Source: Candidatus Zhuqueibacterota bacterium (GTDB lineage Bacteria > Zhuqueibacterota > Zhuqueibacteria > Thermofontimicrobiales > Thermofontimicrobiaceae). From it: a stretch of 64,000 bases of DNA. How positions within the stretch are numbered: the stretch's first letter is position 1; every line of letters starts with the position of its first letter. Positions 9,188 to 60,473 of this stretch are shown here, piece by piece. The DNA is taken from contig JAPDPQ010000001.1 of NCBI GenBank assembly GCA_034506395.1, positions 4,435-68,434 of the forward strand, written 5' to 3'. The notes beneath the pieces are model-generated. The model was not told the origin of the DNA. It was given only the letters and a program-made list of their open reading frames with translations, and did no database searches. Made by a program: the position numbers and the translations under genes.

Positions 9188-9188
9188 T

Positions 9189-10592: not shown

Positions 10593-10840
10593 CTTCAATT
10601 CAAGAGCGAGATAGCAGCGTTCATCCTCCGTTCGCCGTTCCTTCGGTCCTCGCTCAAGCCAGTCGCTTCAGGTTGTCAAATTTATATCGATGCAAAGGAT
10701 GAAATATTTGACGAGCTCAAAGAGATTTGCTTTTACGATTTTGGGCCCTATTTGCATTCTTTCAGAAAAGCGTTATATTTAATTGATCGTTATTTAATCT
10801 TATTTCGAATTGCTAATCGAACCAAGCGTAGAAAGATTAT

Positions 10841-11527: not shown

Positions 11528-11694
11528 AATCAGTCAGCGCTGACGACTTCATCCAATTGAATTAAAGCATCGACAAATTGCCGTGATCGCCAATTGCGCG
11601 AATTGACCCAATTAACCCAATTTTGCTATTCGCCAAATTAGCTTTATTCGTTTGAATTCGCTGTTTTATTCTATATCCCATCGCGCCAATCCAG

Positions 11695-12588: not shown

Positions 12589-12795
12589 GTTAAACTGTGT
12601 TAAAATTCTTGATGATCATTGCATGAGGGTTCTACAATTGAATCCATTCGAATTTTGCTCGTCGCTGCTAAAAAAGTTTAGGAATCCGTTTTGTCTCATT
12701 CATCGATGTACGCATTGATTTTATTCATAAATTAACAGATGAGCTGTTGAAAATAGCTTTTTGTATTTTGCAGAAATTCCTCAAATGTACAAGCA

Positions 12796-13623
12796 ATGGA
12801 GAAACCCATGTATCCAGTTCTTTTTAGATTTGGTGCCTTTGAGCTCCGCAGCTACGGTCTCGCTCTGGCGCTGAGCGTGGCGCTGGGAATTTGGATTTCT
12901 TTGAAGCGAGCGCCTCGCTATGGAGTCAAAAAAGAAACGATTCTCGATCTGGCTGTGATCATTATGCTGGCAGCGATCATTGGCAGTCGATTCTGGTATG
13001 TGATCTATCATATTGATGAATTTCGCGGGCATTGGTTCGATACCATCAACCCGTTTCAGGGTGGCACGATCGGGATTGCTGGTTTATCCATGGTCGGCGG
13101 GGTGGTTTTGGCAATTCTTTCGGCGCTGGTCTACGCGATGGTCAAGAAATTGGACTTTCTGAAGTTGGGCGATACCATCGCCCCAGTTTTTTTACTTGGC
13201 GAAGGGATCGTCCGCGCTGGTGGCTGCTTTCTGAACGGCTGTTGTTTCGGTCGCCCTACCGATAGCCCGCTGGGCATTGTTTTTCCTCCAGAGGGCGTGG
13301 CTGGTTCGCTGTTCCCTCACACGCATCTTTGGCCTGCCCAACTGTTCGCCTCTGCATTGGGTTTCATTGGATTTGCCCTCGCCCTCTGGCTTGATCGAAA
13401 ATCCAAATTCAAAGGATTTACCTTTTGGCTGGTGTTCGGGTATTATGCAATCGATCGGTTCATCGTAGATCAATTTCGCTATTATGAATCACCTCAAGTA
13501 TTAGCCACATTAGGGCCGATCACTTTTAACGCGAATCATTTGTTGCTGGCCGGATTGTTTATTTTCAGCGTCTTTTTCTTCATTCGAGGCTGGCGCCAGC
13601 AGCAGAGGTCAGAGAGAAAATAG
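12796..13623 (+). CDS. lgt: Prolipoprotein diacylglyceryl transferase
   Basis: Multi-pass membrane protein with the Lgt signature (...LRSYGLALALSVALGIW... and GGCFLNGCCFGRPTDSPLGIVFP). Confidence 0.85.
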   Translation: MEKPMYPVLFRFGAFELRSYGLALALSVALGIWISLKRAPRYGVKKETILDLAVIIMLAAIIGSRFWYVIYHIDEFRGHWFDTINPFQGGTIGIAGLSMVGGVVLAILSALVYAMVKKLDFLKLGDTIAPVFLLGEGIVRAGGCFLNGCCFGRPTDSPLGIVFPPEGVAGSLFPHTHLWPAQLFASALGFIGFALALWLDRKSKFKGFTFWLVFGYYAIDRFIVDQFRYYESPQVLATLGPITFNANHLLLAGLFIFSVFFFIRGWRQQQRSERK

Positions 13624-14628
13624 ATTGATGTGTTCCTGAGTTCGCTCGACTTGATGGAACGCATCCTGTTGTGACCTAACACAAAATCAAAAAAGTTCTT
13701 TCGATGAATTGAATGGGGGACAAGATGAATTGAAATGGCTCAAGGCTGCAACTTTCTTAATTTTCGCTTGGGCACCTTCTTCTTGTACCCTCTTTCTGAC
13801 ATCTTCAATTTACGATCGAATGATTTCTTTCATGAACGCAATGGCAAAATTAGTAGCTCTGAAAAATTTAAATTGCATCCCTGGCATGATCTATGCCCCA
13901 AAGAAAGCTTCATCCTCATCAAATGGCCATTGTCTTCAATTTAATATTGATCGATCATTTTGACTGAGCATTCAATCGTAAAAAGTGATATTCAAAAAGA
14001 ATTTTTCTGCCTGCATAATCTATCTGTGAAAATCAATTTATTGAGCATCTATTGGGTTTTGATCGTCACGACCCATTTGAAAATTTCTAATGAAGCAGCC
14101 TTATTTATCGCCCACAGCTTTTATGGCCCGAACATCAAAATTTGGAATTTAACCTTATTGGCTTATTTCTTGGCTGTTTGAAGATTTTGATCTCCATCCT
14201 CGATATGATAGTCAGCTTTCGAAAACAAAAATAAGGTGCTTTGATTTCACCCGACATGCTATAGCTTCTCCATGTTGCGGATTTGCTTTATCCAGCCACT
14301 AACAATTTTAGGCAGCCAAAGCGCATTTTATCCTATTTCTGGGGAAATCAGCCGAGCAGAGGATTCTGAGAGTAGACACTTTTGGCTCTAGATCCGATTA
14401 GCTTGAAACATTGGGGCGAATGGATGAGCTTCATTGATTTTGATAAATAGCATGCTGAGAATTGCATCCATTGACATGGAATCAACATTGAAAACAATTT
14501 CTGCTGAAGATCTCTCCTCCTTAAAAATTTCAATTTTTCTCGCCCACGGCTGAGTCAAATTATGTGGATATGTGAAGATATGTTTCAATCCTACAAAGCA
14601 GGTGCTAATAATTAGCTGGCAACCAAAG

Positions 14629-15504
14629 CTACATTTTGCGGCATACAATGCAAACATACGGAATGGTGAGGTGCAAAGCGCCGTTCATATGAGCAATGCG
14701 ATTCAATTTTTGTTCAACAATTTCAAACACAGGCTTTCGATCTTCTGGAGAAAGGATCTTTTCCCAACTTTCTAAAAACGCAAGCTTGATGAAGAAATGA
14801 CCGAACATGGCACTGCCATCCAAAAAACTCATCGAAAAATGATCTTCATGAATTTTCTTGATGCGAAAACCTGCAGTGGTGATCATTTTCAGCGTCTGAT
14901 GAAGGGGTCTGCGTTTTTCATGAATATGTTTGTGCATCTCGTCAATTTCCCGCCGCTTTCCCATCTCGCTTAAGGTTTGTTCGAAAATTTGATAAAACTC
15001 CTTCATGGTTCCTGGAAGGTTGACAGTAAGAATAAATTGGGCGTGAGGCTGGCTCACCCGTGCACATTCTGCCAAAACAGCCTCAGGATCGGACACATTA
15101 TTGATCCCATTATTGGACACGATCAAATGAAAAAAGAGAGCGGGAAAAGGCAAATGTTCTCCCAGTGCTTGGATTAAAGCGACATTGGATAGGGCTTGAC
15201 CGTGAGCCTTTAATTGAGCTCGCTTTAGAGCGGCGAACCATGGGTCAATCCCATAAATTTGACATGAGGCACCCATCCGATTGGCCAATTCGATCAATGG
15301 GAAGCCCGCTCCACAGCCGAGATCCAGTACATTCATCTTCGGCTTCATCAAAACGCTATCTAAAAGTCTCAATCCGAATGGCGCAGACCACAATGGGAGA
15401 TCATCCAGAATCGAAACGAGCAATGGATCGTTTGAATCGAACTTCTGACTGACATAATTGTGCATGATTGAGATCCCGTGGTTCGTTGATTTTTTGAATA
15501 TCAC
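14629..15504 (-). CDS. Class I SAM-dependent methyltransferase
   Basis: Motif I VLDLGCGAGFPLIELA. The true start may be the internal Met at about 15465 (MHNYVSQ). Confidence 0.7.
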   Translation of the reverse strand: MIFKKSTNHGISIMHNYVSQKFDSNDPLLVSILDDLPLWSAPFGLRLLDSVLMKPKMNVLDLGCGAGFPLIELANRMGASCQIYGIDPWFAALKRAQLKAHGQALSNVALIQALGEHLPFPALFFHLIVSNNGINNVSDPEAVLAECARVSQPHAQFILTVNLPGTMKEFYQIFEQTLSEMGKRREIDEMHKHIHEKRRPLHQTLKMITTAGFRIKKIHEDHFSMSFLDGSAMFGHFFIKLAFLESWEKILSPEDRKPVFEIVEQKLNRIAHMNGALHLTIPYVCIVCRKM

Positions 15505-15642
15505 GATGAGTGATGCGCAGCAGGATCGAAGATCAGCTGCGAGGAATCTTTTATTGCTGGGGAACCCATAAGTTGCCCATCAGTAGAATAGTAAAACTTT
15601 AAATAAATTGCAACCATTATTTAACAATAGGAGTGATTCAGC

Positions 15643-17262
15643 ATGAAAAATTTTCTCCTCGTTGCCCTGGTACTCATGTTTTCACAACTTTTCTCTCCCC
15701 AAACAATTTTTTCCTGTACCAATTATTTGATCACCAAAGGTGCCGCTGTCGATGGCTCGACCATGATCACCTATGCCGCTGATTCGCATGAGCTCTATGG
15801 TGAATTATATTTCACGCCTGCTGCCGATCATCTTCCTGGCACGCTGCTCGATATTTACGAATGGGACACGGGCAAATTTTTAGGCCGGATCAAACAGGTG
15901 GCTCACACATATGCGGTTGTAGGCAACATGAACGAACATCAGGTCTCTATTGGGGAAACAACCTGGGGTGGTCGCGAGGAATTGAAGGATCCAAAAGCCA
16001 TCATGGATTACGGGAGTTTGATGTACATTGCCCTGCAGCGCGCAAAAACCGCCCGCGAAGCCATCAAAGTGATCGCGGATCTCGTTGCTGAGTATGGCTA
16101 CTATAGCTCGGGCGAATCGTTCTCTATCGCCGATCCCAATGAGGTCTGGATCATGGAGATCATCAGCAAAGGACCGAACAACAAAGGGGCGGTCTGGGTC
16201 GCTCGTAAGGTGCCCGATGGCTACATTTGCGCTCACGCCAACCAAGCTCGCATTCGGCAATTTCCATTGAATGATAAAGAGAACTGCCTTTATTCCCCTG
16301 ATGTGATCTCCTTTGCGCGCGAAAAGGGCTATTTTACAGGCGAGGACAAAGATTTCAGTTTTGCAGACGCTTACGCCCCCCTGGATTATAGTGCCTTGCG
16401 ATTCTGCGAAGCGCGAGTATGGAGCATGTTCCGACGTGCAGCCCCATCGTTGAACCTGTCGATCGATTACGTAAAGGGAGTGAAAGGCGCTGAGCCATTG
16501 CCATTATGGATTAAGCCTGATAAAAAACTTTCAGTCCACGATGTTATGGAATTGATGCGCGATCATTTTGAAGGAACCGAATTCGACATGACCAAAGATG
16601 TGGGGGCAGGGCCCTTTCAGCTTCCATACCGCTGGCGTCCGCTCACTTGGAAGGTCGATACCGTTACCTATTGTAACGAACGCGCAGTTTCGACTCAGCA
16701 GACCGGCTTTTCTTTTGTAGCCCAAGCGCGCTCGTGGTTGCCAGACCCAATCGGCGGCGTATTGTGGTTCGGCGTCGATGATACCTATAGCACAGTCTAT
16801 GTTCCCATGTATTGTGGAATTAAACAAGTCCCTCATAGCTTTGCAGTAGGCACTGGATCATTCGATGAATTTAGCTGGGAATCGGCTTTCTGGGTGTTCA
16901 ATTTCGTGGCCAACTATGCATATTCCCGATACAGCGATATGATCAAGGATATCCAAAAGGTGCAGCGTGAGCTGGAGGGAAAATTTTTCGCCGATCAATC
17001 GGAAATCGAAGCTGCTGCGCTGGCGTTATACAAACAATCGCCACAACTGGCCCGAGATTATTTGACCGAATATTCGGTAAAGCAAGGCGATGCCACGGTC
17101 CAGCGCTGGAAAAAATTGGGCGAATTCCTCCTGTATAAATATCTCGATGGAAATGTGAAAAATGAGCTGGGAAAAGTCACCCATCCCGGCTATCCTGAAT
17201 CCTGGTATCGCCGCATCGTTAACGAAACTGGCGAACATTTTAAAATGAAATCACTGCAATGA
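15643..17262 (+). CDS. Peptidase family C69 dipeptidase (Ntn-hydrolase), secreted
   Basis: N-terminal signal peptide followed by the Cys nucleophile (FSCTNYLITKGAAVDGSTMITYAADS), typical of C69 dipeptidases. Confidence 0.65.
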   Translation: MKNFLLVALVLMFSQLFSPQTIFSCTNYLITKGAAVDGSTMITYAADSHELYGELYFTPAADHLPGTLLDIYEWDTGKFLGRIKQVAHTYAVVGNMNEHQVSIGETTWGGREELKDPKAIMDYGSLMYIALQRAKTAREAIKVIADLVAEYGYYSSGESFSIADPNEVWIMEIISKGPNNKGAVWVARKVPDGYICAHANQARIRQFPLNDKENCLYSPDVISFAREKGYFTGEDKDFSFADAYAPLDYSALRFCEARVWSMFRRAAPSLNLSIDYVKGVKGAEPLPLWIKPDKKLSVHDVMELMRDHFEGTEFDMTKDVGAGPFQLPYRWRPLTWKVDTVTYCNERAVSTQQTGFSFVAQARSWLPDPIGGVLWFGVDDTYSTVYVPMYCGIKQVPHSFAVGTGSFDEFSWESAFWVFNFVANYAYSRYSDMIKDIQKVQRELEGKFFADQSEIEAAALALYKQSPQLARDYLTEYSVKQGDATVQRWKKLGEFLLYKYLDGNVKNELGKVTHPGYPESWYRRIVNETGEHFKMKSLQ

Positions 17263-17647
17263 CAATCCAGAATCGAGCACATCGAATCTGGAATGCTCTT
17301 ACAAGAGCTCTGCTCTTCAACTTATGAGTGCTTTCAAAAACCGCAAATTCTGCTATGTACCAATTGGCGCATTTGCTGATTTGAAATTGATTCCCCCAAT
17401 TGGCTAAATTCGCGGCCAAGGTAGAGTGGACTCATTTCTCAATAGCAAAACAATCATAAGACGATGGGAGATCGCTGTTCGGCAGCGATCTTTCATCGAA
17501 TCATCTCTGGTGAATCCTCGGAATCATGGCGTTCGATCAAGTGGCTGGAAAAAACAATTGACATTTGAACGAAAAAATTGTATACTGTGGCGTTCAAGAC
17601 AATCAGATTCGCTCAAACCATCAAGTTAATAACGAGGGAGGAACTCA

Positions 17648-18091
17648 ATGGAAGGCATAATCCAGAAGGCTATGGAGATGTTCGAAATTCCGGCCCATCG
17701 CACTCACTATCTGTTTCTACTTCCTGCTTTCTATGTCGCTAAAGCTGATGGAAAGCTTTCAATGAAAGAAATCATGGCGCTCCGACTTCATGCTGTCACC
17801 CTCGGGCTCATCGGTCCCCAGGATGAGGATAGTGCTGAGTTAGAAACATTTTTTGAAAAAAAGATTGAGCAATTCGGCAAAGAATTGAAACTCAGTGATC
17901 TGGATTTATTGGCCAAGGCAATCAATGCTCGATTGACCAATTACACCCCAGACAAAGCCAAGGCGATTCGCGAGAGCATCTATCAATTATGCATGCACGT
18001 CGCGGATGCATCAGGGCCACTGTTCGGAGAAAATATTACTGAAGAAGAGCGCGAGATGTTGAAACAAATCTTTTATAAGCTGGAAAAATGA
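17648..18091 (+). CDS. TerB-like domain protein (hypothetical)
   Basis: 147 aa; YVAKADGKLSMKEIMAL... pattern reminiscent of the TerB/DjlA N-terminal fold. Weak. Confidence 0.35.
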   Translation: MEGIIQKAMEMFEIPAHRTHYLFLLPAFYVAKADGKLSMKEIMALRLHAVTLGLIGPQDEDSAELETFFEKKIEQFGKELKLSDLDLLAKAINARLTNYTPDKAKAIRESIYQLCMHVADASGPLFGENITEEEREMLKQIFYKLEK

Positions 18092-20591: not shown

Positions 20592-20934
20592 ACCCTTGAT
20601 AATTATCTGGACCACGCAAATAGAACAACCACGGAATTTTTTTGGTCTCAGAACTGAAAGGTCTCAGAAACAAAATTCTGTGAGCTTTCATTGCTGCGAC
20701 CATCCTTTTAAAGAATAACTACAAATGCAAACAAAAATCAATTCAGTTTTCCGCCTTAAGTTGCTTGTAAATCGGTCTTGGTTTATGTATATTGAGGACC
20801 AATAATGCTTCTCGCCCGCTTGCTGATGGCTAAGGGCTGGTTGAGACGATTATTCTACATTGCGATTGTACTTTAAATTTGACCTGAATAAAACGCTGGT
20901 CAGCTATTCCTCCAAAAAAAAATGCAATAGAAAT

Positions 20935-21279
20935 ATGAAACCGATCACGCTACAACAATGTCAGCAACTTGTCGATGACTGGATCACCACCGTCGGCGTG
21001 CGCTATTTTTCCGAATTGACCAACCTGGCGCAATTAATGGAAGAAGTGGGCGAGGTTGCCCGCATCATGTCCCGCACCTATGGGGATCAGAGCTTCAAAA
21101 AATCGGATGAGGCGAAAAAACTATCAGAGGAATTGGCGGATGTGTTTTTTGTGCTCGTCTGCATTGCCAATCAAACTGGCGTGGATTTGACCGAGGCGTT
21201 CTGGCAGGGGATGGAAAAACGAACGAACCGCGATCGGGAACGACATCAAAACAACATGAAATTGAAACAGGGTGCTTGA
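20935..21279 (+). CDS. MazG-like nucleotide pyrophosphohydrolase domain protein
   Basis: ...LAQLMEEVGEVARIM...KLSEELADVFFVLVCIANQTGVDLTEAF; start taken at internal ATG 20935 (MKPITLQQ). Confidence 0.55.
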   Translation: MKPITLQQCQQLVDDWITTVGVRYFSELTNLAQLMEEVGEVARIMSRTYGDQSFKKSDEAKKLSEELADVFFVLVCIANQTGVDLTEAFWQGMEKRTNRDRERHQNNMKLKQGA

Positions 21280-30502: not shown

Positions 30503-31438
30503 TCAATCAAATAAAATACTAATGGATTCCTCATTATGAATTCGCTGGATGGCATTCCCGAATAAATTCGCCACCGATATTACTTTTAATTTATCGAACA
30601 TCTTTTTTTCATCCAACGGGATCGTATCAGTAACAACGATTTCAGAAAAAAAGGAATTTTTCAATTTTTCTGGCGCATTCCCAGACAAGATAGCATGGGT
30701 ACACCCGGCATAAGCACCTTTTGCCCCCTCCAAAAACGCTGCCTCAGCCGCTTGCAGCATTGTCCCTCCGGTATCGACAATATCGTCGATAATAAGGATG
30801 TTTTTATCCTTCACTGAACCAATGATACTCATGACCTCCGCTTGGTTTGGCTTTGGTCGGCGTTTGTCCGCAATCGCAAGGGGAATATGAAGTCGTTTCG
30901 CATAAGCCCGGGCAAATTTGACGCCGCCAATATCGGGAGATAGCACCACCAAATCCTCTATCCCACGTTTCAAATAATAGTCGACCAAAATCGGTGCCGA
31001 ATATAAATGATCCAGTGGGATATCAAAAAAACCTTGAATTTGGGCAGCATGAAGATCCATGGTCAAAACGCGATCTGCCCCAGCAGTGGTGATCAGATTT
31101 GCCACCAATTTCGCGGTGATCGCCACGCGCGGCTGATCTTTTCGATCTTGCCGGGCATATCCATAATATGGAATGACAGCGGTGATCCTTTTAGCCGAAG
31201 AACGACGCGCTGCATCGATCATGATAAGCAATTCCATCAAATTGCTAGATGGCGCATTGGTTGACTGAACGATGAAAACATCACAACCACGGATATTCTC
31301 ATTATACTTCACCCAAATTTCACCATCGCTAAAGTATTGGATGCTGGAATCCCCTAGCGGGATACCCAAGTAATCGACAATCTTCTTGGCCAATTGCTTT
31401 CCATTCGTTCCAGCGAATACCTTCAAAGAATTGCTCAT
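30503..31438 (-). CDS. prs: Ribose-phosphate pyrophosphokinase (PRPP synthetase)
   Basis: ...VFAGTNGKQLAKKIVDYLG...FSDGEIWVKYNENIRGCDVFIVQST...ITAVIPYYGYARQDRK...DLHA.QIQGFFDIP. Start taken at MSNSLK; the longer track ORF would overlap the tRNA. Confidence 0.9.
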   Translation of the reverse strand: MSNSLKVFAGTNGKQLAKKIVDYLGIPLGDSSIQYFSDGEIWVKYNENIRGCDVFIVQSTNAPSSNLMELLIMIDAARRSSAKRITAVIPYYGYARQDRKDQPRVAITAKLVANLITTAGADRVLTMDLHAAQIQGFFDIPLDHLYSAPILVDYYLKRGIEDLVVLSPDIGGVKFARAYAKRLHIPLAIADKRRPKPNQAEVMSIIGSVKDKNILIIDDIVDTGGTMLQAAEAAFLEGAKGAYAGCTHAILSGNAPEKLKNSFFSEIVVTDTIPLDEKKMFDKLKVISVANLFGNAIQRIHNEESISILFD

Positions 31439-36933: not shown

Positions 36934-38229
36934 TTAGTGAATGGAGCCCAATATCAATCTTGGGACCTGACATGGTGCTTCATCAATTTCAATTGCCGAT
37001 CGTAAAGCGTGTTCAATTTGCTCAGCATTCATCACTTTTGAGTGATAGATTTCAGCCAAAGGCTCACCGCGTTCCACGCGATCACCGACTTTATGGCACA
37101 AAACGATCCCCGCGGTGGGATCAATGGGATCTCCAATTTTTGCCCGACCAGCGCCGAGTTCCATGGACAACAAGCCGATCTTCAGCGCATTTATCTCGTG
37201 AACATAACCTGATTTGGTGCTGAGCACGGTTTCATGATATTGGCTGAAGGGATATCGAGCAGGATTTTCAACGACTGAAATATCACCTCCCTGGGCAGTT
37301 ACCATCTCAATAAATTTATTATAGGCAGCTCCATTGGCTAATAAAAATTGCAATTGATCAGAATGATGAATTGGCTTTCCCGCCAATCGCAGCATCTCTG
37401 CCGTGAGCGCCAAAGTAATTTCAACTAAGTCATTTGGGCCACCACCATGCAATGTATCAATTGCTTCTTTAACCTCCAGCCAATTCCCAACCGCATAACC
37501 TAAAGGCTGATCCATGGCCGTCATCATGGCCGTAGTGGGCAGGCCGAAGCTTTTTGCAATCGAGATGAATGTCTCGGCTAATTGGTTCGCTCGGTCAAAT
37601 GAGCTAAAAAATGCTCCACGACCAGTTTTAACATCCAACACCAGGGCCTTTGCACCTTCTGCGATCTTTTTGCTCAATATGCTGGCAACAACTAAAGGGA
37701 TCGATGGCACAGTTCCTGTGCGATCGCGTAACGCATAAATCTTTTTGTCCGCCGGGACAATCTCATCGGTTTGCCCAATCATGGCAAGGCCGATTTTTTC
37801 AACTTGTTGAACGAACTCTGTCAAGCTCAACTGGGTTCGAAAGCCGGGGATCGATTCTAATTTGTCCAATGTCCCACCAGAATGGCCCAATCCACGACCA
37901 GACATCATGGGAACTGCTACCCCTGCCGCGGCGGCCAATGGGGCCAAGACCAATGACACCTTATCACCGACCCCTCCAGTGCTGTGCTTATCGACAGGCA
38001 TCCGATCTAAATGGCTGAAGTCTACCGTCCGGCCCGATTGAACCATGAGCTTGGTCAATGCTTGAGTCTCTTCTATGCTCATGCCCTGAAAATAAATGGC
38101 CATCAATAAAGCGGCCATTTGGTAGTCTGGGACCAAACCAGCGACATAGCCATCGATTATTGATTTCAACTCTGCCTCTGAAAGGTGAGATCCGTCTCGC
38201 TTTTTCACAATCAATTGTTCAATATTCAT
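36934..38229 (-). CDS. Thymidine/pyrimidine-nucleoside phosphorylase
   Basis: MNIEQLIVKKRDG..LS..ELK.II.GY..G...DYQMAALLMAIYF.GM...E..ALT.LM..SG...D...VDKHSTGGVGDKVSL; C-terminal domain ...LGAGR..IGD.IDP.AGI.L.KVGD.V..GEPLA.I.. Start taken at internal MNIEQ. Confidence 0.9.
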   Translation of the reverse strand: MNIEQLIVKKRDGSHLSEAELKSIIDGYVAGLVPDYQMAALLMAIYFQGMSIEETQALTKLMVQSGRTVDFSHLDRMPVDKHSTGGVGDKVSLVLAPLAAAAGVAVPMMSGRGLGHSGGTLDKLESIPGFRTQLSLTEFVQQVEKIGLAMIGQTDEIVPADKKIYALRDRTGTVPSIPLVVASILSKKIAEGAKALVLDVKTGRGAFFSSFDRANQLAETFISIAKSFGLPTTAMMTAMDQPLGYAVGNWLEVKEAIDTLHGGGPNDLVEITLALTAEMLRLAGKPIHHSDQLQFLLANGAAYNKFIEMVTAQGGDISVVENPARYPFSQYHETVLSTKSGYVHEINALKIGLLSMELGAGRAKIGDPIDPTAGIVLCHKVGDRVERGEPLAEIYHSKVMNAEQIEHALRSAIEIDEAPCQVPRLILGSIH

Positions 38230-38319
38230 CGTTCCTCTTCCTTTTTCCAAAAAACAAAGAAGCAATCAAACAACGATTGCTTCTTTAATTTTGTTTTCAT
38301 TCTATAGCTCTATTTCGTG

Positions 38320-39681
38320 TCAACTAAGAGCGCTCAATTGCTTAATCTCCTCAACAAATTGATAAGCCAGTGCATTGGCTTGGTCCATGGTTTTCGCCTC
38401 AGCGTAGATTCGGATAATTGGCTCTGTATTGGACGGTCGAATTTGCACCCAGCGATCGGGCCATAGGATCTTCAAACCGTCCGTCAGATCGAGACGCTGG
38501 TTATTGTATTTATTGGTCATCGTCTTCAATAACTCGCCAATATTCACATCGGCCAATTCAATGCGACTCTTAGCGATCACATATTGCGGCAAAGATCGTT
38601 GCAATTCGCCAATAGAGCCCCCAAATTCAGCCAATTGCTGCAAAGTTAAGGCAATTCCCACTGGTGCATCTCGGCCTAAATGAAGCTCCGGCAAGATAAC
38701 TCCTCCGTTTCCTTCCCCACCGATCACCGCCTTCACTTCCTTCATCTTTTTTGCGACATGAATTTCCCCAACTTTGGTTCGAAACACCTCAGCGCCATAT
38801 TTGGCAGCAATTTCGTCGATCGCCTGGGTGACCGAGACATTGACCGCCACTGGCCCGTGTCTTTTTTGAAGCACATAATTCACAGCTAACGCCAAAGTAT
38901 ACTCCTCGCCCAGGGGATTGCCGTGCTCATCGACAATGGCGAGCCGATCGACATCCGGATCCACTGCAAAGCCCAGATCGGCACCAGTGCGCTTCACTGT
39001 CTGGCATAATTCTTTGAGATTCTCTGGCAATGGTTCTGGTGGATGCGAAAATAACCCAGTTGGATCCTCATTGATAAATATCACATCGCATCCCAGGCGT
39101 TGCAATAATTGGGGTAAAATGGTCCCACCTGCTCCATTCACACAATCTACGACAACCCTAAATTTCCGGGCAGCTATCTTCTCTGGTGAAATCAAATCTA
39201 ATCGCAAAATGGCATCGATATGATGCCGAATAGCGGTGTTATTAAGTTCGATCTTTCCAATTTGATCCCAAGGGACAAAGCGAAATTCTGCTTCGTCGGC
39301 AAGCTGAATGACTTTCTTGCCTTGTATCTCATCGAGGAACATGCCAGAGGCATCGATCAATTTCAACGCGTTCCATTCGATTGGATTATGGCTGGCTGTG
39401 ATGGCAATGCCTCCACGCGCCTTAAAATGCTCCACCGCCAATTCTACCGTTGGCGTTGGGCAAATGCCGATATCAATTACATCGCATCCCATGGCCGTCA
39501 GGCCAGAGAGCACCGCATGCTTGACCATGGGTCCAGTGATTCGGGAGTCTCTTCCTACCACCACCTTTCCTCCACCCAAATAAGCCCCGAATGCCTGGGC
39601 GTATCGGAGGACCACCTCTGGGGTTAACCCATCTCCAACCACGCCTCTTATTCCCGAGATGCTAACCATTAATTTCGCCAC
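38320..39681 (-). CDS. Phosphoglucomutase/phosphomannomutase-family alpha-D-phosphohexomutase (phosphopentomutase candidate)
   Basis: SISGIRGVVG, GIAITASHNP (phosphoserine loop), FAVDPDVDRLAIVDEHG (metal-binding loop), GGEGNGGVILPE (sugar loop); 90 nt downstream of the nucleoside phosphorylase on the same strand. Confidence 0.8.
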   Translation of the reverse strand: MAKLMVSISGIRGVVGDGLTPEVVLRYAQAFGAYLGGGKVVVGRDSRITGPMVKHAVLSGLTAMGCDVIDIGICPTPTVELAVEHFKARGGIAITASHNPIEWNALKLIDASGMFLDEIQGKKVIQLADEAEFRFVPWDQIGKIELNNTAIRHHIDAILRLDLISPEKIAARKFRVVVDCVNGAGGTILPQLLQRLGCDVIFINEDPTGLFSHPPEPLPENLKELCQTVKRTGADLGFAVDPDVDRLAIVDEHGNPLGEEYTLALAVNYVLQKRHGPVAVNVSVTQAIDEIAAKYGAEVFRTKVGEIHVAKKMKEVKAVIGGEGNGGVILPELHLGRDAPVGIALTLQQLAEFGGSIGELQRSLPQYVIAKSRIELADVNIGELLKTMTNKYNNQRLDLTDGLKILWPDRWVQIRPSNTEPIIRIYAEAKTMDQANALAYQFVEEIKQLSALS

Positions 39682-39720: not shown

Positions 39721-40296
39721 TTAGAACCGATTATAATGAACAATATCGCTTAATCTTCTTTTAGGGACATGCAGAACACCTTGATCGTCCTTCCAATATT
39801 TAATTGAATCTTTCACTTCTTCCACTACTGGCGACTCATCGGGATAGCCCAATGCCACTACCGAGTCGATTTGATAATGCTGGGGGATGTCAAAAACCGA
39901 TCTCAATTGATTCCGATCGATCGATCCCAGCCAGCAAGATCCTACATTTTCTTCCAGGGCTGTCAGGATCATGTTTTCGATAGCCGCGGCTGCGTCCACG
40001 CTGCCGTTCCCCGATTTGATCTGAGTATTGACCAACACCACAATATACGCCACTGGACGTTTTCCTTCAGGGGGATTCCCCGCAGGAGCAATATAACCTG
40101 CCCATTTCAAAGCAGGAAATACCTTGTTCACCATCTCCGGATCATCGACAATAATGAATTCCAATGGCTGCAGATTTGCCCCCGATGGCGCTAATCGTCC
40201 TGCGTTGACTAATTTTTCCAATAGCTCCAAAGAAAGCGGTTCTTGTTTAAACCGGCGAATCGTTCGACGCTTCAGAATTATCTCATAAACGCTCAC
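39721..40296 (-). CDS. Nitroreductase family protein
   Basis: ...ILKRRTIRRFK..P.S.E.L.KLV.AGRLAPSGANLQP.EFIIVDD... Confidence 0.7.
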   Translation of the reverse strand: MSVYEIILKRRTIRRFKQEPLSLELLEKLVNAGRLAPSGANLQPLEFIIVDDPEMVNKVFPALKWAGYIAPAGNPPEGKRPVAYIVVLVNTQIKSGNGSVDAAAAIENMILTALEENVGSCWLGSIDRNQLRSVFDIPQHYQIDSVVALGYPDESPVVEEVKDSIKYWKDDQGVLHVPKRRLSDIVHYNRF

Positions 40297-49224: not shown

Positions 49225-51588
49225 GTGACGCCGAGAGTTGAGAAATTAAGAAGACAAAGCCTGGAGACTCCGACATCGATTACAGCAGAGCGAGCGGTTT
49301 TAATCACCGAATTCTATCGATCGCATGATGCATTGACTATCTCAGCGCCGATGCGCCGGGCATTGGCGTTCAAATATCTGATGGAACATAAAGCCGTTTG
49401 CATCAACGATGGTGAGTTGATCGTTGGCGAGCGCGGACCGGCTCCTCGGTCAACCCCAACATTCCCAGAGATCTGCTGCCATACGATTGAGGAGCTTGAG
49501 ATCCTCAATTCGAGGGAAAAAGTGAGCTACGCGGTCTCTGAAGAAACCAAGCGGATTTATCGCGAGCAAATTATTCCCTATTGGAAGGGAAAGACTATTC
49601 GGGAAAAGATCTTTGAGGAGATGACCGATGAGTGGAAAGCGGCCTATCGCGCTGGGATTTTTACCGAGTTCATGGAGCAACGCGCTCCTGGTCATACAGC
49701 ATTAGATGACAAAATTTACTTGAAAGGCTTTTTGGGATTTAAGAAAGAGATCGAAGAGCAACTGAGTCGATTGGATTATCTAAACGATCCGGAAGCGTAC
49801 GAGAAGCAGGAACAGCTCAAAGCCATGGCCATTGCTGCGGATGCCATCATTCGCTATGCCGAACGACATGCCGAACTCGCCCAACAAATGGCCCGCAAAG
49901 AATCTGATCCAGTCAGGAAACGCGAACTTGAGCAAATTGCAGAAATCTGCGCCTATGTCCCAGCCAATCCGCCACGAACCTTCTGGGAGGCGCTGCAGGC
50001 GTACTGGTTCACCCATGTTGGGGTGATTTCGGAATTAAACACCTGGGACGCCATCTGCCCTGGCCGATTCGATCAGCATTTTTATCCGTTTTACAAAAAG
50101 GACATTGAGTCTGGTCTATTGTCTCGAGAGGCCGCTAAGGAGCTTCTGCAATGCTTCTGGATCAAATTCAACAATCAGCCCGCCCCTCCAAAGGTGGGCG
50201 TCACTGCTCAGGAGAGCGGGACTTATAACGATTTTGCGCTGATTTCGCTGGCCGGACAAACGCGCGATGGAAAAGACGGTGCCAACGAGCTCTCCTATTT
50301 ATGCCTCGATGTATTGGAGGAATTGCGGCTGGTGCAGCCCCACTGTTGCGTTCAATTGAGCCAGCAAAATCCCGATCGCCTGCTGAAGCGTGCGCTCGAG
50401 GTCAATCGCACTGGTCTGGGTCAACCCTCGATCTTCAATCATGACGCCGTGGTCCAGGAGCTTATTCGCCAGGGCAAATCTATCGAAGACGCGAGGACCG
50501 GCGGCACCAGTGGGTGTGTGGAGACCGGGGCATTGGGCAAGGAAAATTACAATCTCACCGGCTACTTTAATATGATGAAAGTGCTGGAAATCACGCTCCA
50601 CAATGGCGTCGATCCCCGTACTGGAGAAAAGATCGGGATCGAAACCGGGGATCCCACTCGATTTGAAAATTTTGAGCAATTATTCGAGGCTTATAAAAGA
50701 CAGCTTCGGCACTTCATCGACATTAAGATCCGAGGCAATAACATCATCGAAAAAATCTATGCGCAATATATGCCCACGCCGTTTCTTTCATTGTTGATTA
50801 GCGATTGCATTCAACGTGGTAAAGATTATCACAATGGCGGAGCGCGCTACAATACAAGCTACATCCAGGGCGTTGGTTTGGGCAGCATTACGGACGCCAT
50901 GAGCTCATTGAAATATCATGTTTACGATCATCGCAAGCTCACCATGGAGCAGATGCTCAGCGTCCTTAAAGATAATTATGAGGGCCATGAAAGGATTCGG
51001 CAGATGATGCGCTATCAGACACCCAAGTACGGCAATGACGATGATTATGCCGATGAGATTATGAAGCGGGTATTTGAAGCCTACTTTGAAGCGATCGATG
51101 GCAGGAAAAATATGAAAGGAGGAACTTATCGCATCAACTTGCTCCCGACGACGGTTCATGTCTACTTTGGCTCAGTGGTGGGAGCAACTCCCGATGGTCG
51201 AAAGGCAGGAGACGTACTCTCTGAAGGGGTGTCTCCAGTTCAGGGGGCGGATCGAAACGGTCCAACAGCAGTGATTAAATCGGTAGCCAAAATCGATCAT
51301 TTACGCACGGGCGGCACTTTGCTGAATCAGAAATTTTCACCTTCGCTACTGAGCAGCGATAACGGACTCGCTGGACTCGCCCATTTGGTACGATCTTATT
51401 TTAAAATGAACGGACATCACATCCAATTTAATGTGGTGACCGCTGCTACGCTCCGAGCGGCTCAGCAGCACCCAGAGAAGTATCGCGACCTGATCGTTCG
51501 GGTGGCAGGATATAGCGATTATTTCTGCAACTTGAATAAAGGCCTGCAGGATGAGATCATCGCCAGGACCGAACATCAAAGCTTTTAG
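49225..51588 (+). CDS. Glycyl radical enzyme, PFL2/glycerol-dehydratase-like clade (substrate unknown)
   Basis: 787 aa. N-terminal region typical of dehydratase-type glycyl radical enzymes (RVEKLR...ERAVLITEFYR), active-site GTSGCVETG (Cys and Glu), C-terminal glycyl radical motif RVAGYSDYF. Confidence 0.9.
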   Translation: MTPRVEKLRRQSLETPTSITAERAVLITEFYRSHDALTISAPMRRALAFKYLMEHKAVCINDGELIVGERGPAPRSTPTFPEICCHTIEELEILNSREKVSYAVSEETKRIYREQIIPYWKGKTIREKIFEEMTDEWKAAYRAGIFTEFMEQRAPGHTALDDKIYLKGFLGFKKEIEEQLSRLDYLNDPEAYEKQEQLKAMAIAADAIIRYAERHAELAQQMARKESDPVRKRELEQIAEICAYVPANPPRTFWEALQAYWFTHVGVISELNTWDAICPGRFDQHFYPFYKKDIESGLLSREAAKELLQCFWIKFNNQPAPPKVGVTAQESGTYNDFALISLAGQTRDGKDGANELSYLCLDVLEELRLVQPHCCVQLSQQNPDRLLKRALEVNRTGLGQPSIFNHDAVVQELIRQGKSIEDARTGGTSGCVETGALGKENYNLTGYFNMMKVLEITLHNGVDPRTGEKIGIETGDPTRFENFEQLFEAYKRQLRHFIDIKIRGNNIIEKIYAQYMPTPFLSLLISDCIQRGKDYHNGGARYNTSYIQGVGLGSITDAMSSLKYHVYDHRKLTMEQMLSVLKDNYEGHERIRQMMRYQTPKYGNDDDYADEIMKRVFEAYFEAIDGRKNMKGGTYRINLLPTTVHVYFGSVVGATPDGRKAGDVLSEGVSPVQGADRNGPTAVIKSVAKIDHLRTGGTLLNQKFSPSLLSSDNGLAGLAHLVRSYFKMNGHHIQFNVVTAATLRAAQQHPEKYRDLIVRVAGYSDYFCNLNKGLQDEIIARTEHQSF

Positions 51589-52916: not shown

Positions 52917-55900
52917 TTATCTTGCAATCACCATTTTTCGCGTGAGCCGTTCAGTCGGCGTAATTAAACTATAAAAATAGATACCGCTCACAACACTCTC
53001 TCCCAGATCATCCCTTCCATCCCAATAGATTGTGTAAAAACCAGCTTTATGAAACTCATCAACCAGCGTCTTGATCTTTCGCCCCAGCACGTTGCTAATC
53101 ATGATTTTCACCTGACCATCGGTTGGGATCTCATATTTGATCGAAGTCTGGGTGTTAAAAGGATTGGGATAATTTTGCCATAGCATGAATTTTTCTGGTT
53201 TGGGCGCTGTAAGAGCAATGACGTTGTGAAATTTTTTCTTGCCGGTCAAGCTCAACTGTTCCAATTTGTAAAAATAGGTTTTTCCCGCCTCAGCGGTGCG
53301 ATCCTGAAACGAATAATGCTCCTTTCCCGTGATGAGCTGATCGGTGAGCCGGGTGAAGTCCTTGTTGGGTGATTCGCTGCGATAAAGATGAAACCCTGCA
53401 CAATTGGTTTCATAGCTAATGATCCAAAAAAGATCAATGGTGGCATCGCTATTGATGCGGCCGAAGAAATTATCGAGCTGGGCAAATTGCGGATAATAAG
53501 AACAAGCCAAATTGCACTTTCGAAATCCAGATTGATAACCATTACTTGTCAACAACTTGACACGCCAGTAAAACGGTCGATCAATGCTGATCCGCTCAAA
53601 CCCGATCAATTGATTCAAGTTGATCCTCTTCGTTCGGCAGGTGTCGGTACTGATCAATTTTGAAAATGTGCTGTCCCAGCTGAGCTGAATCACATATCGG
53701 CACTTCGTGAGATCAATGTCCTGCGAAAGTAACGAATCATTTTCCCAAATGAATAGATCTTCCTCGTGAATTCGACCTCCTTGAATTGGGAAGATCAACC
53801 GAGGGGCAGGTAACTGGATTTGTTTGGCTGGATGAATCACCCAATGGTGCATGACTGTGGTATCGCGACCTTCGACAACGAGCCATACAGTATCACTCAT
53901 TGAAATGGCTGAATTGACACGATAACAAAAACTGCTGTCCTGGCCGATTTTCATAAGCTGCTGACCGATCGACCAACGATATTGAAGAACATCGCGATCT
54001 CCTTCGCGCACCCCAACCGAAAGGGTGAGGCTATCTGGTGGAGTAATTGAGAGTTCCTCTTCCTTGGGGTAAAATGCCAATCGGAATGGGCGAGCTTCCA
54101 GCATCTTGGCCTTTTGGATATACCAGCGATGAACGATCGCGCTATCTCCATGTTCGATCAGCACTGTAATTGTATCGATTTTCGAATCGCGAAAGACAGG
54201 ATGATAGACGAAAATCGAGTCCTGGGCTGAGGAGTCGATCTGATGATTAACTTTCCATCGAAACCGAAAGTCATTCTTGGCATGGCGAACCAGAAAGACC
54301 AAACTATCGCTCAAAACTACTACCGAATCCTGGGGCAGATAGTGAATTTTTTTGCTCTCGGCGATGGAATCGAGCGGGCTGGGCCATAAGATCCATTGCA
54401 AATAAATGGCAGTATCGGCATCGGTGATACTGAGCCTCAGGGTATCGACAGTTGAACGATTTTCGGTGCAGCTAAAAACATATTGGTGCTGGCGGGCTGA
54501 GCGATCGATCAGGCCATTGAGTGACCAACTATATCGCAAACTGTCATGATCCGGATCCTGGCACAGCACTTGAAATTGAATGCTATCGCTTTTGACGATG
54601 AACGAATCAAGCGGGGGAGAACAATACCGGATTTGAGGTGCTCGATTTGGCCGCACTTTTGTGCTTACAATCCAGCGATGCGTCATGGAGCTATCCTGAT
54701 CCGCAATTTCGACTACAATCGTATCTAGGACTGTCGATTTATCCCCTTTGATAAATTTGTAGCTTGGCTCAACGGCAATGTTATCTTTCTTGCCATTGAT
54801 CAACCAACGCCAGTGATATTTCCCTCTCGCAACAGAATCAGCTAAAACCGATAGGATCAGAGTATCCCCAAATGCAATAGTCGTGTCAGATTGGGGCAGA
54901 AATCGCAAATCATTCAGGAGCCGGCGCGCCACGATCAAATCTACGATCCATTGATGTCTTAAGGTGGTATCTGAGGCAATAATGGTCACTGCAATAACAT
55001 TCTTGCCGGAGACGAGGGAATCGGAGGGGATCAATACCCAAGGATTTATGCTTGGTGCAAAAATTCTCTCATTAACCTGCCAGCGAAAAGAGAGCGAATC
55101 GACATCGGACGAGAACGTTTGTATTGAACATTTGAGCCGATCACCTATCCTTATGGTTGTATCTGATTTGGGGAATGTCCCAACAATAGCGATCTTGTTG
55201 GCGCTTTTCTGAGGCCACAAAATCCAGGAATGAATCAGAGTAGTGTCTTCATCAAAATGTCTGATTTTTACCGTGATGGTATCATTGGGTTTCTGTTCGA
55301 ACTGGTATGATTGAAAGGCAATTCGATTCGAATCATTCGAAATGGGCTTTCTATTCAACAGCCATTGAAATGAATATTTTTCTGAATCAATTGGCACGAC
55401 AGCAAAAGATATCGACGCCCCTTTTAAGATTGATGTATCTTGGGAGGGAAAAAATTGGAATAGGGATCGCAGCTCGGGATGAACAAACACAACATTGGAT
55501 CTTGTGATTTCATGAGCGACCGAATCAAAAGCAGAGATATAATACCAGTAGCGCTGATTCGGATTGGTGTTGACGTCTGTGAAAAGAGTATCCGAAGCCG
55601 GGAATTGAGAGATGGGTCGAAACGATCGCTGATGCTCCTCTTTTCGGAAGAGACAATAGCCCGCAAACTCAGGATCGCCAGTCCACTGCAAACTTGGAGG
55701 AAATCGATTAACGATTGTTAAACTGGGTGGTTGGATAATTCGGTTTATGAACGTAAACTCTTTCTCACAACGAAAACCCTCTTGTGTTGATATTTCGAGC
55801 ACAAGTCTGGCTTTATAGCCATGCGGACAATCGCCATTCATCGTTAATATCATCGGCGCCAATTCGTTGGTGAATTCCTGATTGTATTCCAATACAGGAA

Positions 55901-57449
55901 GAGTCACGTTCGAATTTTCGATGGCGACTTGAAGATCGCGGCTGAAGAGTTGCATCGATATCCCATGGGCAGTTGAAGAGAGATTTTTGATCTTGAACCA
56001 GATTGGAACCGAAAGACAATTTGATTTATGATCTTTTTCGCCAGATAGATCAAACTGGATTTGTCGAACGACGATATTCGGCAGGAATTGGGAATTGACC
56101 GCACGGAAGAAATTGATTCTCCCAGCTCCCAGTTGGCCATAATAACCAGAGTTTTTCTGATAAATATTGTCACTGCTCCATAGAATTCTTTTCTTCAAGC
56201 TGTCGGTGGTGATGATTTTTTCATTGGACAACAATATCCCAGCTAAGCAAGTGACATGGGCAGCGGCGATGGATGTGGGTGAAGGCCAATATTTAATCGA
56301 ATCTGTTGCACTGATGGATGCGAAAAGCTGAGCAGGGGCAGCCAGATCGATCCAGGGCCCGAAATTGCCGGATGAAATTTTTTGGTCATATTGATCTGTT
56401 GCCGTGACTGACCAGACCTCAGGAAAGGCGGCTGGATAAGCCGGCGCTTGGGCAAAATAATCTCCAGCAGCAGAGATGATCACCACATCGCGCTTGGCAG
56501 CGTATCGGATTGCGTGGTGAAGCAATCGAGAGGAATCTTCTCCAGCCCAACTCAAACATATAACTCGAGCGCCGTGATTAGCCGCGTAGACGATCGCTTG
56601 GGCTGCTGCAGCAGCGGGTACCAAGATTTTGCCTTGTCGCGTCAACAAACCTGCTTTCAACGCCATCAGCGTCAATCGACCTCCTGAGCGAAAACTCGTC
56701 CAATTAAGCAGCGGCTGCATGATCATTCTTGCCAGAGAAGTTCCGTGTCCTGACTCGTCAATGGATTGATTGGTCCAATCGATCCCGTATCGGACCATCA
56801 TTTCCCTGGGCACAAAATTCCAGCCACAAAGATCATCAACCAGGCCATTGCCATCATTATCTTTTCCATCAGCCTTTTCTAGCCGGTTATGCCAGAGAAT
56901 TTCGCTCAAATGGGGATCGGTCTGATCGACCCCAGCATCGATACTGGCAATTGTCAGCGAATATTTTGGGCTCAGCTTTTCTAACAGATCGATTGTTTGC
57001 ATTTCCAACGGCATAACGATCGGCGGATTCGTCGTCACTTCCGCATAATAAAAATAATTGTAATCGACCCAATCAACATCTTTTAATTTTTCATAACTGC
57101 TCCTGATCCTCGAGGCCGCGATCCCGTTGGAAAATCGCAACAAATAACAGCGATCCAGAGGATTTCCATTAATCGGTCCTCTGCTGAACAACGGAATTAT
57201 CTCTTTTAACCGATAAATCGCGTTAAGAGAATCTAATTGAAAAACTCCAGTCAAAAATGGCGACTTGCTCAGATTGATTTTCAATGGAGACTTCAATCGA
57301 ATAATGAGTTCGTTACGCGCATATTGCTCTGATATTACGGAAGGCTGAGCATAAACGACTTGCGGAACGATAAAAAGTTGGCGGGGCGCTAAGATGGAAA
57401 TACTCAGCACAATAAATCCAGCTATAATTTTTATACCAACCTTCTTCAT
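52917..57449 (-). CDS. Subtilisin-like S8 serine protease with I9 pro-domain, about eight tandem ~100-aa repeats and a C-terminal T9SS (Por) sorting domain
   Basis: Signal peptide; catalytic triad motifs IASIDAGVD, GHGTSLA, SPTSIAAAHV; a long repetitive C-terminal half with the recurring pattern [FY]xWxxNG....Y.F....D.I.V.I.D.D....H.W.I; the last ~75 aa (...TSIKYEIPTDGQVKIMISNVLGRKIKTLVDE.HKAGFYTIYWDGRDDLGESVVSGIYFYSLIT...TRKMV) match the T9SS C-terminal domain. Confidence 0.8.
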   Translation of the reverse strand: MKKVGIKIIAGFIVLSISILAPRQLFIVPQVVYAQPSVISEQYARNELIIRLKSPLKINLSKSPFLTGVFQLDSLNAIYRLKEIIPLFSRGPINGNPLDRCYLLRFSNGIAASRIRSSYEKLKDVDWVDYNYFYYAEVTTNPPIVMPLEMQTIDLLEKLSPKYSLTIASIDAGVDQTDPHLSEILWHNRLEKADGKDNDGNGLVDDLCGWNFVPREMMVRYGIDWTNQSIDESGHGTSLARMIMQPLLNWTSFRSGGRLTLMALKAGLLTRQGKILVPAAAAAQAIVYAANHGARVICLSWAGEDSSRLLHHAIRYAAKRDVVIISAAGDYFAQAPAYPAAFPEVWSVTATDQYDQKISSGNFGPWIDLAAPAQLFASISATDSIKYWPSPTSIAAAHVTCLAGILLSNEKIITTDSLKKRILWSSDNIYQKNSGYYGQLGAGRINFFRAVNSQFLPNIVVRQIQFDLSGEKDHKSNCLSVPIWFKIKNLSSTAHGISMQLFSRDLQVAIENSNVTLPVLEYNQEFTNELAPMILTMNGDCPHGYKARLVLEISTQEGFRCEKEFTFINRIIQPPSLTIVNRFPPSLQWTGDPEFAGYCLFRKEEHQRSFRPISQFPASDTLFTDVNTNPNQRYWYYISAFDSVAHEITRSNVVFVHPELRSLFQFFPSQDTSILKGASISFAVVPIDSEKYSFQWLLNRKPISNDSNRIAFQSYQFEQKPNDTITVKIRHFDEDTTLIHSWILWPQKSANKIAIVGTFPKSDTTIRIGDRLKCSIQTFSSDVDSLSFRWQVNERIFAPSINPWVLIPSDSLVSGKNVIAVTIIASDTTLRHQWIVDLIVARRLLNDLRFLPQSDTTIAFGDTLILSVLADSVARGKYHWRWLINGKKDNIAVEPSYKFIKGDKSTVLDTIVVEIADQDSSMTHRWIVSTKVRPNRAPQIRYCSPPLDSFIVKSDSIQFQVLCQDPDHDSLRYSWSLNGLIDRSARQHQYVFSCTENRSTVDTLRLSITDADTAIYLQWILWPSPLDSIAESKKIHYLPQDSVVVLSDSLVFLVRHAKNDFRFRWKVNHQIDSSAQDSIFVYHPVFRDSKIDTITVLIEHGDSAIVHRWYIQKAKMLEARPFRLAFYPKEEELSITPPDSLTLSVGVREGDRDVLQYRWSIGQQLMKIGQDSSFCYRVNSAISMSDTVWLVVEGRDTTVMHHWVIHPAKQIQLPAPRLIFPIQGGRIHEEDLFIWENDSLLSQDIDLTKCRYVIQLSWDSTFSKLISTDTCRTKRINLNQLIGFERISIDRPFYWRVKLLTSNGYQSGFRKCNLACSYYPQFAQLDNFFGRINSDATIDLFWIISYETNCAGFHLYRSESPNKDFTRLTDQLITGKEHYSFQDRTAEAGKTYFYKLEQLSLTGKKKFHNVIALTAPKPEKFMLWQNYPNPFNTQTSIKYEIPTDGQVKIMISNVLGRKIKTLVDEFHKAGFYTIYWDGRDDLGESVVSGIYFYSLITPTERLTRKMVIAR

Positions 57450-58988: not shown

Positions 58989-60473
<1,485 letters not shown>

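Follow-up and report, generated by a model that had tools for sequence, protein, structure and literature searches.

How might deoxyribose-5-phosphate be supplied to a DeoC-bearing microcompartment when the DNA at hand reveals no DeoB? The question is raised by a stretch of 64,000 nucleotides from a Candidatus Zhuqueibacterota bacterium (contig JAPDPQ010000001.1, positions 4,435 to 68,434; hereafter the window), which carries a microcompartment locus of the SPU3 type and, on the opposite strand, an alpha-D-phosphohexomutase gene beside a gene for a pyrimidine-nucleoside phosphorylase. On balance, we favour a deo route without DeoB, in which the phosphorylase and a mutase of the type called 'GlmM' in the FCB group would feed the SPU microcompartment, with the same mutase also serving amino-sugar synthesis. 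What carries this reading are the identities of the genes, their intact catalytic motifs and a linkage to DeoC, shell and regulator genes that has been kept through repeated rearrangement. A preliminary description of the window had already suggested that the pair feeds deoxyribose-5-phosphate to DeoC; the core of that suggestion holds up in view of the clustering of the pair with these genes in relatives and the missing deoB, while an archaeal-type mutase and a role for phosphoribosyl pyrophosphate (PRPP) synthetase have to be given up.

The proposed route comprises few steps. The phosphorylase, together with phosphate, would split thymidine or deoxyuridine into the base and 2-deoxyribose-1-phosphate, and the mutase would shift the phosphate to yield 2-deoxyribose-5-phosphate. 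This product would be consumed by the RpiB-DeoC fusion of the SPU3 microcompartment, and an aldehyde dehydrogenase would finally convert acetaldehyde to acetyl-CoA. As its second job, the mutase would turn glucosamine-6-phosphate into glucosamine-1-phosphate for the envelope.

The gene pair and its phosphorylase

Both open reading frames (ORFs) of the pair lie on the minus strand at the coordinates given in the preliminary description, and the region is organized as follows:

39721-40296, minus strand: nitroreductase-family gene (Pfam PF00881), 39 nt upstream of the mutase
38320-39681, minus strand: alpha-D-phosphohexomutase, 453 aa, GTG start, with four PGM_PMM Pfam domains and TIGR03990
38255-38287, minus strand: terminator-like hairpin with a 14-bp stem and a 5-nt loop followed by a T run, inside the 90-nt spacer
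36934-38229, minus strand: thymidine/pyrimidine-nucleoside phosphorylase (NP-II family), 431 aa from the ATG at 38229, with three Pfam domains

Along the direction of transcription, the mutase is the first and the phosphorylase the second gene of the pair; the preliminary description had adjacency and strand right and the order reversed. The longest ORF of the phosphorylase is TTG-initiated (36934-38265). We prefer the ATG at 38229 (MNIEQL...) as its start, because the upstream TTG lies inside the hairpin and the ATG is preceded by AGGAAGAGG, a good ribosome-binding site. With translation starting there, the spacer of 90 nt given earlier is correct.

The phosphorylase consists of the domains Glycos_trans_3N (PF02885), Glycos_transf_3 (PF00591) and PYNP_C (PF07831). 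It exceeds the cut-offs of TIGR02644 (548 bits; cut-off 409) and of the thymidine phosphorylase model NF004490 (533; cut-off 269) and stays below that of NF004747. The closest solved structure is the pyrimidine-nucleoside phosphorylase (PyNP) of Geobacillus, 1brw, with 432 bits versus 327 for the thymidine phosphorylase (TP) of E. coli, and the alignment to 1brw shows that six of seven active-site residues are kept (Asp80, Lys81, His82, Gln153, Tyr165 and Lys188). At the position of PyNP Lys108 the protein features a Met in the context PMISGRG, as does E. coli DeoA (M111). Among the mutase-linked phosphorylase orthologues examined, 11 of 13 contain the pattern PM[MI]SGRG, which is unmatched in the tblastn segments of the loci L001 and L086. 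Pugmire and Ealick are said to have singled out this Lys108/Met111 position as the one separating deoxyribose-specific TP from ribose-tolerant PyNP, with Met as the TP-like state that favours deoxyribose.

The transcription unit of the mutase probably begins with the nitroreductase-family gene. Such a gene stands directly upstream of the mutase in seven loci (the window, L001, L084, L085, L088, L090 and L097), and the metabolic logic of this conserved nitroreductase-mutase-phosphorylase triad is not obvious. A scan for sigma-70 promoters gave no enrichment (9 found versus 8.9 expected), and we claim no promoter.

Linkage to DeoC, the microcompartment and a regulator

In a KSB1-like subclade, whose loci came from protein look-ups and a metagenome scan, the phosphorylase follows a mutase 56-87% identical to that of the window in 15 loci (those set out here, and L003 beside L002):

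L088, L097, L001, L089, L084 and L090: mutase, spacer and phosphorylase, as in the window
L169 and L170: mutase and phosphorylase 1-2 nt apart, with DeoC (and, in L170 only, GNAT) a few kb downstream
L085, L087 and L093: mutase, DeoC, phosphorylase
L086: mutase, EutN, DeoC, phosphorylase, with the stop codon of the mutase and the start codon of EutN overlapping (ATGA) and two BMC-H genes nearby
L002: RpiB-DeoC fusion and GNAT 2 kb upstream of the pair
L092: mutase, phosphorylase, SorC/DeoR-type regulator (PF04198), RpiB-DeoC, thioesterase, BMC-T, BMC-H, EutN

A deo-type cluster of phosphorylase, mutase and deoxyribose-phosphate aldolase (DERA) is present in L085, L086, L087, L093, L092, L002, L169 and L170 and absent in the window; a deo-type regulator stands beside the pair in L092 only, and none was recognised in the window. 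The linkage thus persists through these rearrangements while recruiting DeoC, genes for shell proteins and a regulator of the deo type, which suggests a functional module rather than inertia.

Two of these loci merit a closer description. In L086 (GCA_029261995.1), positions 10001-17925 read mutase, EutN, DeoC, phosphorylase, PBP1A, LpxH, BMC-H, BMC-H and IspE, so that microcompartment genes are dispersed within a housekeeping block. In L092, the SorC/DeoR regulator (6705-7652; helix-turn-helix and PF04198 sugar-binding domain) has the phosphorylase on one side and RpiB-DeoC on the other, and a histidine kinase and a sigma-54 response regulator are encoded upstream of the mutase.

The arrangement is reminiscent of E. 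coli deoCABD and B. subtilis dra-nupC-pdp/DeoR: the same three steps (NP-II phosphorylase, shift of the phosphate from C1 to C5, DERA) stand side by side in the relatives, and L092 likewise carries a regulator of the SorC/DeoR family (PF04198), which we take to be the family of B. subtilis DeoR, a sensor of deoxyribose-5-phosphate. In contrast to both systems, the mutase here is not DeoB, an enzyme of the alkaline-phosphatase type (COG1015); the DERA forms one chain with an RpiB-like domain and is directed to a microcompartment; and in the window the genes are split over two sites ~25 kb apart. DeoB itself has no counterpart: a tblastn search with the E. coli protein returned no homologue at E<=1e-5 in the window, as the preliminary description had stated, or in 167 loci, and only three Zhuqueibacterota genomes contain deoB (K01839; PMC11683472).

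The DeoC-bearing microcompartment to which the same description had alluded is indeed present in the window, as an SPU3 locus at ~3.5-11.5 kb, with all genes assigned by Pfam:

3470-4876, plus strand: RpiB-DeoC fusion (LacAB_rpiB and DeoC), the signature enzyme of SPU3 and proposed consumer of deoxyribose-5-phosphate
5064-5693, 6063-6383 and 9189-9812, plus strand: BMC-domain proteins
7028-7594, plus strand: GNAT
7742-9187, plus strand: aldehyde dehydrogenase
9799-10089 and 10320-10592, plus strand: two EutN/BMC-P genes
10841-11527, plus strand: class II aldolase

The features that define SPU3 are found here, namely DERA (pfam01791) and RpiB (pfam02502) in one fused chain, aldehyde dehydrogenase, BMC-H, BMC-T and BMC-P, with two BMC-P genes recognised versus a triplet in the published description. 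With SPU3 loci described before (Sutter 2021; Dwyer 2024), the window locus has the RpiB-DeoC fusion, the aldehyde dehydrogenase, the class II aldolase and the shell gene set in common; the fusion is typical of SPU3 (PMC11585597; PMC8217296 supplement), and the published hosts of SPU3 already include KSB1 and Calditrichaeota (PMC8217296 supplement). The DeoC half conserves the DERA residues D102, K137, K167 and K201. In the RpiB half, an Asp replaces the catalytic Cys (GIMIDGAG versus GIVICGTG in Clostridium thermocellum RpiB), and the same loss of the catalytic residue has been reported for SPU isomerases, described as an 'inactive isomerase' (Dwyer et al.). A GNAT gene (Acetyltransf_3, RimJ/RimL-like) accompanies DeoC in the window (7028-7594) and at least three relatives, L002 (7895-8437), L170 (13489-14046) and L087 (16343-16897), an association that occurs both inside and outside microcompartment loci.

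Deoxyribose-5-phosphate from DNA breakdown is the presumed SPU substrate, for which deoB has been put forward as the preceding step (PMC11585597), and neither a phosphorylase nor a phosphohexomutase-family gene is among the locus components in the published SPU descriptions and their supplements. The concept of nucleoside breakdown feeding SPU has been published before; what is new is the pairing of the two genes, the way they are linked to genes for shell proteins and a regulator, and the kind of mutase involved.

Identity of the mutase and competing explanations

What kind of enzyme is the mutase? PF02878, PF02879, PF02880 and PF00408 all match above their gathering scores, giving the four-domain PGM_PMM_I-IV architecture. 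The motifs TASHNP (S97), DPDVDR (241-246), GEGNGG (322-327) and RPSNTEP (415-421) complete the alpha-D-phosphohexomutase signature (TASHNP, DxDxDR, GExxG, RxSxTEP). Across 16 relatives the motif residues are invariant except for P242, which is nearly so, and V244 and P416, which are not listed as invariant; KSB1-like mutases have a P in place of K/R after the phosphate-loop arginine (RPSNTEP). The protein stays below the cut-off of the bacterial glmM model TIGR01455 (232.7 bits; cut-off 447.55) and passes that of TIGR03990, 'Arch_GlmM' (phosphoglucosamine mutase), with 558.4 bits (cut-off 439). We did not accept the latter match as decisive for naming the mutase, since PH0923, ST0242, TK1777 and bacterial orthologues all pass when tested with the model, among them PH0923, a phosphoglucomutase/phosphomannomutase (PGM/PMM), with 598.6 bits, and TK1777, a phosphopentomutase, with 488.2. 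As this 'equivalog' model accepts a proven PGM/PMM and a proven phosphopentomutase, 'GlmM' names assigned automatically within the family cannot be relied on. A public protein 100% identical to the window mutase carries the name 'phosphoglucosamine mutase' and is assigned to a candidate division KSB1 bacterium.

The best solved relatives are PH0923 (1wqa; 340 bits) and TK1108 (9du5; 328 bits), followed by ST0242. A scan of one genome per species recovered the same family in Bacteroides, Parabacteroides, Prevotella, Alistipes, Flavobacteria and Chitinophagales as well as in Ignavibacteria, Chlorobiales, Gemmatimonadota, Cloacimonadota and others; among the matches listed, it contained distant FCB orthologues only and served as a negative control for the linkage. 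These orthologues are 44-51% identical to the window mutase, share DPDVDR and GEGNGG, and are annotated GlmM. The FCB 'phosphoglucosamine mutases' (~460 aa) form an orthologous clade with PH0923, TK1108 and ST0242, with 44-53% identity and identical TASHNP, DPDVDR and GEGNGG motifs. In a neighbour-joining tree rooted on TK1777, its most divergent sequence, the bacterial mutases are one clade beside ST0242 and TK1108/PH0923, within which the KSB1-like sequences are a single subclade. Judged by its sequence, the mutase is an orthologue of the FCB 'GlmM' (Bacteroidota, Ignavibacteria, Gemmatimonadota) and probably no dedicated phosphopentomutase. On the function of GlmM in Bacteroidota, the literature offers nothing decisive.

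The preliminary description had argued that Archaea use this family as phosphopentomutase. This is true at the level of the superfamily: TK1777 of T. kodakarensis (PPMTk; PDB 9ix8) is a proven phosphopentomutase that acts on deoxyribose-1-phosphate (PMC11641776), and TASHNP and DxDxDR are common to PPMTk and the window mutase. However, PPMTk has its GEEN sugar loop replaced ('AAEP-W' in the alignment; PMC11641776), whereas the window mutase keeps GEGNGG; PPMTk has no hexose or glucosamine-phosphate activity (PMC11641776); and the window mutase, unlike PPMTk, groups with archaeal PGM/PMM and GlmM-type enzymes. Orthology to the archaeal phosphopentomutase was consequently rejected by score (only 200 bits to TK1777 versus 340 to PH0923), by the retained GEGN and by the divergence of TK1777 in the tree. 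Human PGM2 is another superfamily member with phosphopentomutase activity.

Copy numbers speak to a second job of the enzyme. In 47 of 47 KSB1 genomes, glmM (K03431) is counted as zero (PMC9012183 supplement); K15778 (pmm-pgm) is present as a single copy in most of them, and pgm and manB are almost always absent (PMC9012183), with two K15778 copies in a few KSB1 and Zhuqueibacterota genomes (PMC9012183, PMC11683472). GCA_014729735.1, the source of L170, has K15778=1, glmM=0, pgm=0, manB=0, deoC=1 and pdp=1 (PMC9012183), and its single mutase is the gene abutting the phosphorylase in L170. The window encodes PBP1A and an LpxH-like protein, so UDP-N-acetylglucosamine would be needed and a lone mutase would have to supply glucosamine-1-phosphate; thus, the mutase probably also serves as the housekeeping GlmM. 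A broad-specificity enzyme, a substrate range that we infer, would fit better than a newly specialised one, because no active-site difference separates phosphorylase-linked from unlinked orthologues. More tentatively, this could hold for a whole group: in KSB1, Calditrichota-like bacteria and Zhuqueibacterota, one broad-specificity 'GlmM' of the FCB type may carry out the essential cell-wall reaction and also stand in for the absent phosphopentomutase in a deoxynucleoside pathway that lacks deoB and is wired to SPU.

Against this stands another account, unlikely in our estimation and still the most serious competitor: the mutase is only a housekeeping phosphoglucosamine mutase (perhaps also a PGM/PMM), the phosphorylase acts in ordinary pyrimidine salvage, the two genes are neighbours through gene order inherited within one clade, and deoxyribose-5-phosphate is provided by another source, for instance a deoxyribokinase or a mutase that went unrecognised. 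Several observations count in its favour and weigh against the deo route. The mutase passes TIGR03990, named for phosphoglucosamine mutase, is the sole family member in most KSB1 genomes, and has the envelope genes PBP1A and LpxH as neighbours. It keeps the canonical hexose-binding loop GEGNGG, unlike the archaeal phosphopentomutase. A comparison of specificity residues between phosphorylase-linked and unlinked orthologues uncovered only clade-specific differences outside the active site; since no active-site position splits the two groups, the sequence gives no pointer to pentose specificity. About 140 FCB-type orthologues (44-53% identity) share the active-site motifs of the window mutase and lack a phosphorylase in the surrounding 10 kb: among the matches listed, none of 80 species-representative loci from other phyla (0/80) has one, and neither does any of ~60 further metagenomic loci at <=53% identity. 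In the loci examined, FCB orthologues are never beside a pyrimidine phosphorylase or DeoC, unlike the KSB1-like clade. Every linked locus falls in that one clade, in which the linkage is missing in four loci (L091, L157, L154 and L094). The pair is embedded in conserved housekeeping synteny (PBP1A, LpxH, IspE, SpoVG, Prs, L25), so its conservation is partly inertia. In addition, the tables of KEGG orthology counts derive from metagenome-assembled genomes and may miss genes.

Two further points of this kind concern the window itself. First, ~25 kb (11527 to 36934) separate the pair from the nearer end of the SPU locus, which is on the opposite strand, and DeoC is ~32 kb away. In window 1-12600, the SPU locus has as flanking neighbours OsmC, an extracytoplasmic function (ECF) sigma factor and an Aconitase_C gene, all of which are found within a few kb of the mutase-phosphorylase pair in relatives (L001, L002, L084, L169, L170). 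As OsmC, the ECF sigma factor, DeoC/SPU, mutase, phosphorylase and PBP1A adjoin in relatives (compared in L002, L084 and L170), the 25-kb gap results from rearrangement of a once compact region.

Second, a strong terminator-like hairpin parts the mutase from the phosphorylase in the window. Its folding free energy is -20.3 kcal/mol (z -5.6), and 0 of 200 shuffles were equally stable. The hairpin is nearly identical in the two closest relatives, L088 and L097, and partly kept in L001 and L089; L085 likewise has a terminator-like hairpin after its mutase. Rfam searches for a riboswitch or known RNA in the spacer or upstream gave only sub-threshold matches, to the hairpin. It is possibly a partial terminator or attenuator that uncouples the expression of the two genes: in the subclade of the window, a nitroreductase-mutase transcript may stop after the mutase, leaving the phosphorylase to read-through or to expression of its own. 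The mutase would then stay on while the phosphorylase is regulated separately, a role of the hairpin that we infer, and such separate expression would make sense given a constitutive need for the mutase in envelope synthesis.

What tips the balance away from mere housekeeping is that the linkage outlasts at least five rearrangements that add DeoC, a shell vertex gene, a DeoR-type regulator or a whole SPU locus, and that it tightens to a codon overlap in L086 and to a gap of 1-2 nt in L169 and L170. Moreover, there is no deoB to complete a route from phosphorylase to DeoC, either in the window and the 167 loci or, by the orthology tables, in all but three Zhuqueibacterota genomes, and TIGR03990 does not discriminate function (PH0923 599, TK1777 488, cut-off 439).

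Could the mutase have become a dedicated phosphopentomutase that replaced DeoB, with GlmM function residing in another protein that goes unrecognised in annotations of metagenome-assembled genomes? The deo-like clustering in relatives, the precedent of TK1777 in the superfamily and the two K15778 copies in a few KSB1 and Zhuqueibacterota genomes agree with this idea, which we nonetheless consider improbable: most KSB1 genomes have one family member and no K03431, the lone mutase of GCA_014729735.1 is the linked gene itself, no faster divergence or motif change is seen relative to unlinked orthologues, and no close paralogue from the 5.2-Mb CP070762.1 is among the best 120 homologues.

Highly improbable is the synthetic direction once proposed for Thermococcus, in which DeoC, mutase and phosphorylase build deoxynucleosides from glyceraldehyde-3-phosphate and acetaldehyde; each of the three reactions can run either way, but DeoC in a microcompartment with an acylating aldehyde dehydrogenase is standard catabolic metabolosome design, the DeoR-type regulator in L092 suits catabolic control, and deoxynucleotides normally come from ribonucleotide reduction. 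The archaeal pathway is drawn in that synthetic direction (PMC11641776). In the deo route favoured here, by contrast, flux would run towards breakdown.

Further features and meaning of the route

The PRPP synthetase that the preliminary description had mentioned alongside the pathway is a genuine gene (30503-31438). It belongs to a housekeeping block, ispE-spoVG-prs-L25(-pth), that is conserved in every relative examined irrespective of deo genes, and its pathway role was therefore rejected. The nucleotide-related genes recognised in the window are the pair, IMP dehydrogenase (58989-60458), PRPP synthetase and a MazG-type NTP pyrophosphohydrolase (20860-21279), and no others.

The remaining window is housekeeping and includes H+-pyrophosphatase, ribosomal proteins, TsaD, NadE, IMP dehydrogenase and LepA. 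A glycyl radical enzyme resembling pyruvate formate-lyase (49225-51588; 787 aa) lies far from the microcompartment genes, and no adjacent activase was recognised. The product of 52917-57449 (1510 aa) combines a subtilase domain with a weak Por/type IX secretion system C-terminal sorting signal, features that fit a secreted protease of a necromass-degrading bacterium of the FCB group.

Outside the KSB1-like clade, two Alistipes metagenome-assembled genomes contain a gene for a DeoD-like nucleoside phosphorylase, 27-29% identical to E. coli DeoD (L015 9108-9833; L021 9119-9844), which is divergently oriented ~170 nt upstream of the FCB-type mutase. This neighbour is possibly a second, independent link between the mutase family and nucleoside phosphorolysis.

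Finally, we would like to consider what the deo route would mean. Few bacterial organelles are as widespread as SPU microcompartments, and their substrate has never been demonstrated in vivo. A phosphorylase and a mutase that repeatedly travel with DeoC, joined in one genome by a shell vertex gene and in another by a DeoR-type regulator and a full SPU locus, provide independent genomic support for the presumed substrate and define a testable gene set. They also make it likely that a non-orthologous enzyme, annotated as phosphoglucosamine mutase, has taken the place of DeoB. This affects metabolic reconstructions of sediment and necromass degraders, in which 'no deoB' is read as 'no deoxynucleoside catabolism'. 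If the reading is correct, the pair, together with the DeoR-like regulator, would for the first time offer genetic evidence of what SPU microcompartments consume, the 'GlmM' annotation would mask a catabolic function across a superphylum, and the deoxynucleoside pathway would be wired to SPU, in one lineage down to translational coupling with the shell vertex gene.

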